Source of the DNA: a virus
Taxonomy: Duplodnaviria > Caudoviricetes
Direction: 5' to 3' (one strand)
Length of the DNA: 64,000 nucleotides
Virus record (IMG/VR): IMGVR_UViG_3300033072_000326
Coordinates: 1 to 64,000 of that record
Shown: positions 40,303-41,423 of the stretch, piece by piece
Position numbering within the stretch: the first letter of the stretch is position 1
Layout of the letters: each line of letters starts with the position of its first letter
The notes under the pieces: model-generated
Database searches by the model: none
The model's input: the letters and a program-made list of their open reading frames with translations, nothing else
What the model was told of the DNA's origin: nothing
Program-made: the position numbers and the translations under genes

Positions 40303-40336
40303 ACAAAGCCCCTCCGTAATTGGAGGGGCATTTTCC
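40301..40336. terminator. Bidirectional terminator at convergence of arms
   Basis: GCCCCTCC-GTAATT-GGAGGGGC flanked by A-rich (left) and T-rich (right) tracts. Confidence 0.8.
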
Positions 40337-40349
40337 TATTGTTTAAATT

Positions 40350-41174
40350 TTAAAAGGACAGGTACACAAGAAGCCAACCAAGTGTCAGGGCGAGCGGAAC
40401 TTGCCCTGTGGTCTGAATTGCCTCTTCACCTGACAACTCACCTTTAACCTTTTGCCAGATATTGTACAAACTCATGTGATGATGAACAAACAGCATTTGG
40501 AAAAGAGACAGAAGGCCAAACATTTCCCAGAATGTAGGGACATACCATCCAAACTTCGCTGCTGCAATTGCATAAGCTTTCAGTGTAATCCACGGGTTGT
40601 AAAAGATTGAGCCAATGAAAATTGACAATACAATAAGTGCTACTACGATATTTGCCTTGTTTTCTTTCATTCTTCTCTCCTTACAGACCAGCCAGTGTAG
40701 CGGCTTCGTTAATCAGCGCCTGTTGCGTCTTAGCTTGAGACTTGGCGTACAAACTTAGAGATTTCTTCAGTGCCTTAATTTGATTCTTATGTTCCTTCTT
40801 GTCCCAACCCAATGTTTCAATAAGTGACTCAACCTCGTCCTTCTGGAGTTGCTTAGTTTTGTCAATATCTCGTTGACTCTGGTTATATGCAGCTCGTGCT
40901 GCTTTGTACAGTTCCAGTTGATGCGGATTCAGCATTACAGCAAAGTTCAGTTCGTTCATTGTGTTTCTCCTTCTTAGTTGTTAATAATTTGTTTCAGACG
41001 AGCTGCAATATCGAGGGCTTTGAAATCGTCACCTACAGACATACCCATCTCAAAAGCATCATCGTAATTACCACTGTCCCAATACTGAAGTTCACCGTTC
41101 TCGTATTGTTCCAGCATTTCATCGTCAACACCGTTAAGTAGTTCATCAATCAGGGCTTGGATTTGGTCTTTCAT
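40350..41174 (-). CDS. Three small proteins (40350-40670 membrane; 40681-40959 helical, DsbA/GapR-like?; 40974-41174 acidic)
   Basis: ORFs with AGGAG SD; functions not established. Confidence 0.6.
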
Positions 41175-41176
41175 GA

Positions 41177-41341
41177 CTATTTCTCCTCTATATTAAAAGT
41201 AAAACTACCAGTAGCATTCTTACGAGCATTGTACGCTTTGTAAACTTCTACAACATGCTCATTAGGCGCTGGTGGATTATCAATCAACTCCTGCACGAAG
41301 TCAACATCTTCTTGCGTTAGTTTCAAGTTAATATCTTCCAC
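41177..41341 (-). CDS. 54-aa peptide resembling TacA/DUF1778 antitoxin C-terminal domain
   Basis: Manual translation MEDINLKLTQEDVDFVQELIDNPPAPNEHVVEVYKAYNARK..., GTG start after AAAGGAGAG; below the ORF-track cut-off. Confidence 0.65.
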   Translation of the reverse strand: MEDINLKLTQEDVDFVQELIDNPPAPNEHVVEVYKAYNARKNATGSFTFNIEEK

Positions 41342-41394
41342 AATCTCTCCTTTAATTTGGAAGCCACACCATGTGGCCTCCCGTCATGTTTTAC

Positions 41395-41423
41395 ATCTTA
41401 CTCGGTGTAGCTTCAGTTGTCAA
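41395..41423 (-). promoter_or_regulatory. sigma70-type promoter
   Basis: TTGACA-17 nt-TAAGAT. Confidence 0.7.

Follow-up and report, generated by a model that had tools for sequence, protein, structure and literature searches.

The locus analysed here raises a simple question: what would a phage do with a 54-codon gene of which the product resembles the tail of a TacA/AtaR (DUF1778) antitoxin, when neither the DNA-binding domain of that antitoxin nor a toxin gene accompanies it? The gene lies in the window, which is the whole 64-kb stretch of DNA that was analysed and forms the first part of an IMG/VR virus record of 88,042 bp with an estimated completeness of 71%. Besides ribonucleotide reductase (RNR) and a PolA-type replication module, the genome encodes structural and lysis modules. 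The RNR large subunit shares no more than 58% identity with its counterparts in Curvibacter, Limnohabitans, Shewanella and Vibrio phages, and megablast with the region found no matching GenBank phage.

The 54-codon gene and its expression signals

The original prediction described a GTG-start ORF for a 54-aa peptide at 41177–41341. The frame was present as described, running on the minus strand from 41341 to 41177 and closed by TAG, and its translation agreed as well. The Shine-Dalgarno sequence and the promoter attributed to it were also found: AAAGGAGAG is present at 41353–41345 (minus strand) with its GGAG core 5 nt ahead of the GTG, and TTGACA-17-TAAGAT at 41423–41395 (minus strand) matches 10 of the 12 consensus positions. 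The promoter-like site is preceded by the stop codon of nrdA, the gene for the RNR large subunit. The features of the transcription unit are as follows.

41395–41423, minus strand: putative σ70-like promoter, with TTGACA at 41423–41418, a 17-nt spacer and TAAGAT at 41400–41395, directly past the nrdA stop
41360–41380, minus strand: predicted 5′ leader hairpin read from the sequence, with a 9-bp stem including one G-U pair and a 3-nt loop
41345–41353, minus strand: Shine-Dalgarno sequence AAAGGAGAG, identical in all orthologues
41177–41341, minus strand: 54-aa CDS with GTG start and TAG stop, predicted to encode an orphan DUF1778/TacA C-terminal neutralisation module

Conservation of the ORF in related phages was a check on which the prediction could have failed, and orthologues were present in three contigs (L004, L005 and L007), at the same place directly after nrdA and with 69% (L004 and L005) or 74% (L007) identity to the window peptide. 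Both promoter hexamers are invariant in these contigs, and so is the GCCAC/GTGGC core of the hairpin stem; the hairpin may be a leader stability element or a weak nrdA terminator. Three contigs have a GTG start, and L007 has ATG at the same codon, which supports the GTG start in the window; the upstream in-frame ATG of some relatives is absent or out of frame in the window and in L004/L005. Across the three diverged orthologues there were no indels or stops in the ORF. The dN/dS ratio (Nei-Gojobori) was 0.26–0.34 for the whole ORF, and differed between codons 2–33 (0.12–0.22) and codons 34–54 (0.63–0.93), which shows that the toxin-binding core is under purifying selection and that the distal extension is fast-evolving.

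The promoter had also been read as a sign of early expression, and this part of the prediction was not upheld. A search for TTGAC[AT]-N16-18-TAnnnT gave 51 matches across the 88-kb record, located before replication and structural genes alike and many with an extended TGTG-n-TATAAT −10 region, and since σ70-like sites occur all over the genome, the site behind nrdA does not date expression of the peptide. The phage appears to use host σ70-type promoters throughout. Two further promoter-like sites, at 1893–1921 of the window (minus strand) and at genome position 85479–85507 (minus strand, beyond the window), are near-identical, lie ~83.6 kb apart and are each followed by ~60 nt of closely similar sequence; this pair is either a repeat or a small transcription unit that has been duplicated.

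Homology and predicted structure of the antitoxin tail

The prediction was built on the likeness of the motif L-T-x2-D-x5-E-[LI][LI]-DNPPAPNE to the C-terminal region of TacA/AtaR antitoxins, and this likeness was confirmed by PDB and profile matches; the Salmonella TacA sequence given for comparison was nearly exact, with one residue off. In a PDB sequence search, the 36-residue TacA3 C-terminal peptide (7ak9_C) aligned to residues 8–33 with an E-value of 2.3e-4, and full-length TacA3 (7zg5_C) had an E-value of 7.5e-4, with KacA and AtaR being weaker. Searching the PDB with a profile from six phage sequences gave TacA3 (4.4e-8), TacA (1e-7) and AtaR (8e-4 to 2e-3), with weaker matches to 1y9b (5e-3) and KacA (0.01), and no match outside DUF1778 below an E-value of 0.1.

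The sole Pfam family matching the window protein was TacA1 (PF08681; E-value 0.023, 15.1 bits, profile positions 47–77 of 80). Against this DUF1778 profile, the window protein with 15.1 bits did not reach the TacA1 gathering threshold of 21 bits, and neither did its orthologue P0004 with 16.7 bits, but four phage relatives did, these being P0005 (30.7 bits), P0007 (29.4 bits), BcepSauron gp198 (26.3 bits) and Yersinia GN1 ORF73 (21.8 bits). The shortfall of the window protein is due to the presence of only ~35 of the 80 profile positions, and the four passing relatives match only profile positions ~43–80. The ribbon-helix-helix (RHH) domain is absent, as predicted, with the Pfam match limited to positions 47–77 and the alignment starting just past the RHH domain; in the joint alignment, the start of every phage peptide lies a few residues at most from where that domain ends.

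The closest bacterial sequences found were DUF1778 antitoxins of Methylomonas, Methyloglobulus and Methylumidiphilus metagenome-assembled genomes (MAGs) and of a betaproteobacterial MAG. The tails of these antitoxins are unusually long, and the long-tailed Methylococcales members share the distal extension with the window peptide; in BLASTP the Methylomonas antitoxin was 36% identical over residues 6–54, including the distal T-G-S-[FI] motif. Because the peptide is collinear with the long-tailed antitoxins over residues 6–54 and its relatives pass the TacA1 threshold, we regard it as a homologue by descent, and the resemblance as true homology to DUF1778/TacA antitoxins on the strength of these alignments. 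The idea of an antitoxin mimic was thus right in that the peptide corresponds to the toxin-binding tail, but not in the sense of a convergent mimic. A second DUF1778-tail match in the Methylomonas MAG (G007:C193:2061-2195) is broken by an in-frame TAA and is probably a decaying paralogue. Pattern-based genome scans for the host-lineage antitoxins nearest to the BcepSaruman and Yersinia phage peptides found none.

In the KacA antitoxin the tail consists of strand βB (52–56), helix αC (57–70), a linker (71-PPAP-74) and helix αD (75–86), and it wraps the toxin, pairs with toxin strand β3, and disturbs both the binding of acetyl-CoA and the dimerisation of the toxin (PMC6698736). The window peptide was divided accordingly.

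41317–41332, minus strand: residues 4–8 (I-N-L-K-L), probable βB equivalent by alignment to KacA/TacA; the KacA strand pairs with toxin β3 (PMC6698736)
41279–41314, minus strand: residues 10–21, helix αC, an AF2 helix with block pLDDT of 90–93
41261–41278, minus strand: residues 22–27 (N-P-P-A-P-N), linker equal to KacA 71-PPAP-74 plus N75, non-helical in AF2
41222–41260, minus strand: residues 28–40, helix αD, an AF2 helix; the KacA counterpart competes with acetyl-CoA binding (PMC6698736)
41180–41221, minus strand: residues 41–54, fast-evolving distal extension with the T-G-S-F motif, which is common to the long-tailed Methylococcales antitoxins

With the family alignment as input, AF2 predicted the helices 10–21 and 28–40 on either side of the proline linker, with a mean pLDDT of 83. 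Residues 4–8 were unstructured in the free peptide, which is expected if the strand forms on binding. When the model was compared with 350,542 chains using Foldseek, eight of the nine top rows were toxin-bound tails of TacA3, AtaR or KacA, the best of these being 7ak9_C with an rmsd of 2.1 Å over 30 columns; no match reached significance for such a short model (best E-value 1.6), and the ranking alone was used. The hydrophobic face of αC (V13/V16/L19/I20) aligns with KacA W61/V64/A67/I68, and V30/Y37 of αD with KacA L78/L85. In the linker, KacA P72 maps to P24 and N75 to N27 in the PDB-search alignment; when 15 sequences from phages and bacteria were aligned, P23 did not vary and P26 hardly did. 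The position of KacA R77 is occupied by H29, and is variable in bacterial antitoxins too. Judged by alignment, the KacA contact positions retain their chemical character in the window peptide.

Compared with TacA, AtaR and KacA (PDB 7ak9, 7zg5, 6ajm, 6gtq and 5zgn), the window peptide therefore shares the βB-αC-PPAP-αD region, its predicted secondary structure and its contact positions, but has about half the length and lacks the RHH DNA-binding and dimerisation domain and an adjacent GNAT toxin gene, and is found in a lytic-phage context with its own promoter-like site. That an antitoxin tail can bind without the RHH domain follows from PDB entries 7ak9 and 6gtq, which according to their titles contain toxins crystallised with the C-terminal peptide alone.

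Tail-only genes in phages and antitoxin-toxin pairs in bacteria

When 1.84 billion representatives were searched exhaustively with phmmer, three true relatives were identified: the 54-aa orthologue P0004 (69% identity), P0007 (53 aa) and P0005 (79 aa). A fourth phmmer hit, P0006 (1260 aa), was spurious and is a surface protein with G5/MucBP repeats. A word-indexed search of a 5.8-billion-protein set with the single peptide as query gave no match beyond the peptide itself. P0005 (L006:6001-6240, plus strand) contains two tandem copies of the tail motif, its TacA1 match of 30.7 bits falling in two stretches, and is encoded within a replication module with PolA, HNH, ligase and Nmad5 genes; with two heads, such a protein would be suited to a toxin dimer.

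Tblastn searches of GenBank phages added gp198 of BcepSauron and gp199 of BcepSaruman, both Burkholderia jumbo phages (48 aa each), and ORF73 (62 aa) of Yersinia phage vB_Yru_GN1. These phages belong to different lineages and have different hosts, yet their proteins are likewise tail-only and toxin-less, are encoded amid small genes without an assigned function and cover the same Pfam positions. They differ from the window peptide in having only 33–35% identity with it, and in being without the distal T-G-S-F extension. The three are 'hypothetical' in GenBank and 'DUF1778 domain-containing' in UniRef, so that the description of the window peptide as unannotated is correct for its own clade but not for the BcepSaruman and Yersinia GN1 homologues. 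In the PHROGs database, full-length DUF1778 proteins make up one family, and the tail forms the end of three more families of unknown function; there is no family for the clade of the window peptide.

Scanning IMG/VR for the exact motif identified a gene for a 59-aa tail-only protein in L026, which is a complete genome of 54 kb, as well as a 123-aa protein with a TacA1 score of 27.4 bits (L023:8137-8508, minus strand) and a 445-aa protein with N-terminal transmembrane segments and the tail at ~281–317 (L025:6815-8152, plus strand). A further 121-aa protein, P0011, has N-terminal 71 residues matching phrog_32148, joined to the tail. The module thus recurs in unrelated phages in tail-only, tandem-double (P0005) and grafted forms. 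The same scan also detected the exact DNPPAPNE octapeptide near the N-terminus of a 593-aa phage structural protein (L022:3481-5262, plus strand; L024:8661-10442, minus strand). These were considered chance matches, with the motif outside the tail context and no match to the tail profile, and as this protein has the octapeptide without the other features of the tail, DNPPAPNE alone is not diagnostic.

The absence of a GNAT gene near the peptide had been noted in the original prediction, and none was found in the whole 88-kb record (~71% complete) with PF00583, PF13508 or a profile of 11 TacT-type toxins. The latter profile also had no match in the L007 fragment or in four phage genomes, namely those of Yersinia phage GN1 and BcepSauron, which are complete, and two from IMG/VR with a completeness of 100% and 97%. 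Three bacterial genomes served as the positive control, and each yielded two to four strong paralogues. Within the class to which the Methylomonas MAG belongs, a profile of the window's clade had matches in 14 of 400 sampled genomes, all in frames of 96–143 aa except for one of 352 aa. A TacT-type GNAT gene was located directly downstream of the tail in 12/12 sampled bacterial loci, versus 0/10 phage loci, using local hmmsearch. On the Hephaestia caeni chromosome a tail match was detected in a 42-aa stop-to-stop frame (L009:2483-2608, plus strand) with no adjacent GNAT gene, and four strong TacT-type paralogues are present elsewhere in that genome; the match may represent a pseudogene, or else an orphan tail fragment in a bacterium.

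A candidate antidote to GNAT toxins and its alternatives

The reading that we favour, with a probability of roughly 60%, is that the peptide would be an orphan antidote which only neutralises, and that its targets would be GNAT toxins encoded by the host or its mobile elements. The phage would have captured the toxin-neutralising module of a DUF1778/TacA-type antitoxin (βB, αC, PPAP linker, αD and distal extension), leaving out the RHH DNA-binding and dimerisation domain as well as the toxin gene. Made during infection from a promoter presumed to be read by the host RNA polymerase, the peptide would bind TacT/AtaT/KacT-type GNAT toxins of the host, its prophages or plasmids in the manner of the cognate antitoxin tail. 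By covering the acetyl-CoA and substrate side of the toxin it would prevent acetylation of aminoacyl-tRNAs, and might so avert the translation arrest that would otherwise be due once phage-induced shut-off depletes the labile cognate antitoxin. Binding, neutralisation, timing and an abortive anti-phage role of the toxin-antitoxin (TA) module are all inferred. Against this antidote function count the Pfam score of the window protein below the cut-off, H29 at the position of KacA R77, and the ~71% completeness of the record, the missing part of which could contain a toxin gene. TacA-TacT pairing is reportedly specific, to judge by the title of Grabe et al. 2021, so that the range of toxins neutralised by a captured tail may be narrow.

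A different use for the same tail, which we regard as unlikely though worth serious consideration, is that it has been repurposed to aid phage takeover by binding a partner other than a TacT-type toxin, such as a different GNAT enzyme of host or phage, or a protein of another kind. Its grafting onto unrelated bodies, as in the 445-aa protein (L025), the 123-aa protein (L023) and the phrog_32148-type protein (P0011), does suggest a portable binding peptide, and both the fast evolution of the distal third and the histidine at position 29, where the solved antitoxins have Arg or Lys, would fit a changed partner. However, the tail is coupled to a TacT-type GNAT in all 12 bacterial loci, the hydrophobic toxin-contact positions are kept, and none of the searches suggested an alternative partner. 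The peptide could also modulate a host TA module, by shifting the toxin:antitoxin ratio of conditional cooperativity, de-repressing or rewiring the operon, or displacing the host antitoxin. Transcription of KacAT and AtaRT is governed by toxin:antitoxin stoichiometry via the same tail (PMC6698736; PMC10135005), and a tail without the RHH domain cannot join in operator binding; since such modulation offers no clear gain for the phage, and the simpler model of neutralisation explains the same data, we consider it improbable.

We give very little credence to a decaying remnant of a captured TA module or a chance ORF, either of them without function. In its favour are the shortness of the ORF, its GTG start and its Pfam score below the cut-off, as well as the toxin-less 42-aa tail fragment on the H. 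caeni chromosome, but a functionless frame is difficult to reconcile with a dN/dS of 0.26–0.34 without indels or stops in three diverged orthologues, with the conserved Shine-Dalgarno sequence, promoter and start position, with the confident AF2 model, and with independent phage lineages holding the same module boundaries. It is equally hard to see the peptide as the antitoxin of a phage-borne TA pair, with its toxin being either a non-GNAT protein encoded by one of the small downstream genes or located in the unsequenced part of the genome. The next gene does follow within 2 nt of the stop codon, as in operon-like coupling, and the record is only ~71% complete; the downstream 66-aa protein is however strongly acidic and matches no toxin family, its gene is swapped for an unrelated one in L007 while the peptide is kept, and the complete phage genomes carrying the module are without a TacT-type toxin.

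Returning to the antidote function, its closest parallels are phage proteins that act on other TA systems, such as T4 Dmd, which acts against RnlA/LsoA. Orphan antitoxins of phages are known for DarTG, as DarG-like proteins of T4-like phages and as an antitoxin mimic of ICP1 (PMC11257639; 10.1101/2023.12.14.571748). The likeness lies in a lytic phage having an antidote without the toxin to survive TA-based abortive defence, as we propose here, and the window phage does combine an antitoxin-derived gene with the absence of a toxin in a genome of putatively virulent type. Unlike the DarG-like proteins, which are enzymes that reverse a modification, the window module would bind stoichiometrically; the target toxin family is also different from the DarTG case, and is here only a putative phage defence. 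A TacA annotation without a toxin has been reported for ORF106 of cyanophage S-CREM1, for which a counter-TA role was speculated and of which the host is without TacAT according to Table 2 of that study (PMC9964418). The S-CREM1 case is an annotation-level suggestion in a T4-like cyanophage. With this speculation (PMC9964418) and the UniRef DUF1778 labels on the BcepSaruman and Yersinia proteins, the observation is not wholly new; what it adds is a clade that had carried no label, the finding that its peptide is collinear with antitoxins of the long-tailed kind, an analysis of selection, and the clear difference between the loci of bacteria and those of phages.

The role of GNAT/DUF1778 modules is debated, with persistence and plasmid maintenance being the usual proposals. 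A literature search found no paper showing that these modules restrict phages; in a 2026 paper on a T7 kinase, Salmonella TacAT was cloned for tests with T7. PADLOC v2 has no model for a GNAT toxin or a DUF1778 antitoxin. Since lytic phages of several lineages keep the tail under purifying selection, and never the toxin, its distribution is an indirect but pointed sign that GNAT toxins threaten phages, and that the modules function in defence. A wider, more tentative reading, to which we would give slightly less than even chances, is that TacAT-type modules are widespread abortive-infection defences, from which unrelated lytic phages have repeatedly captured only the ~35–50-residue neutralising tail as a portable antidote, in stand-alone (window phage, BcepSauron and BcepSaruman, L026), tandem (P0005) and grafted forms (L023, L025, P0011). 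If so, the long-tailed version in the window would have been captured recently from a host module like those of Methylococcales, and would define the minimal natural inhibitor of tRNA-acetylating toxins. More generally, these ~50-residue peptides are predicted to be natural minimal inhibitors and may become tools to switch off tRNA-acetylating toxins, while the proposed stoichiometric, truncated antitoxin would add a variant to the anti-TA strategies of phages.

When searched in PADLOC, neither the 54-aa peptide and the products of the three genes downstream of it nor the toxin and antitoxin from bacteria had a meaningful match. The next gene (40974–41174, minus strand) starts 2 nt past the stop codon of the peptide and encodes a 66-aa protein with 16 Asp/Glu versus 4 Lys/Arg, which matches phrog_38114 (unknown function) with an E-value of 1.8e-14. 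Compared with L004 this gene is very conserved, with a dN/dS of 0.057, but L007 has an unrelated 52-aa gene in its place; it could have a further accessory or anti-defence function. The leftward operon ends with a gene for a 106-aa predicted membrane protein (40350–40670, minus strand), just before a bidirectional terminator at 40308–40329, and as this gene is missing from the orthologous contigs L004 and L007, the convergent junction of the replication and lysis modules is a variable spot for accessory genes.
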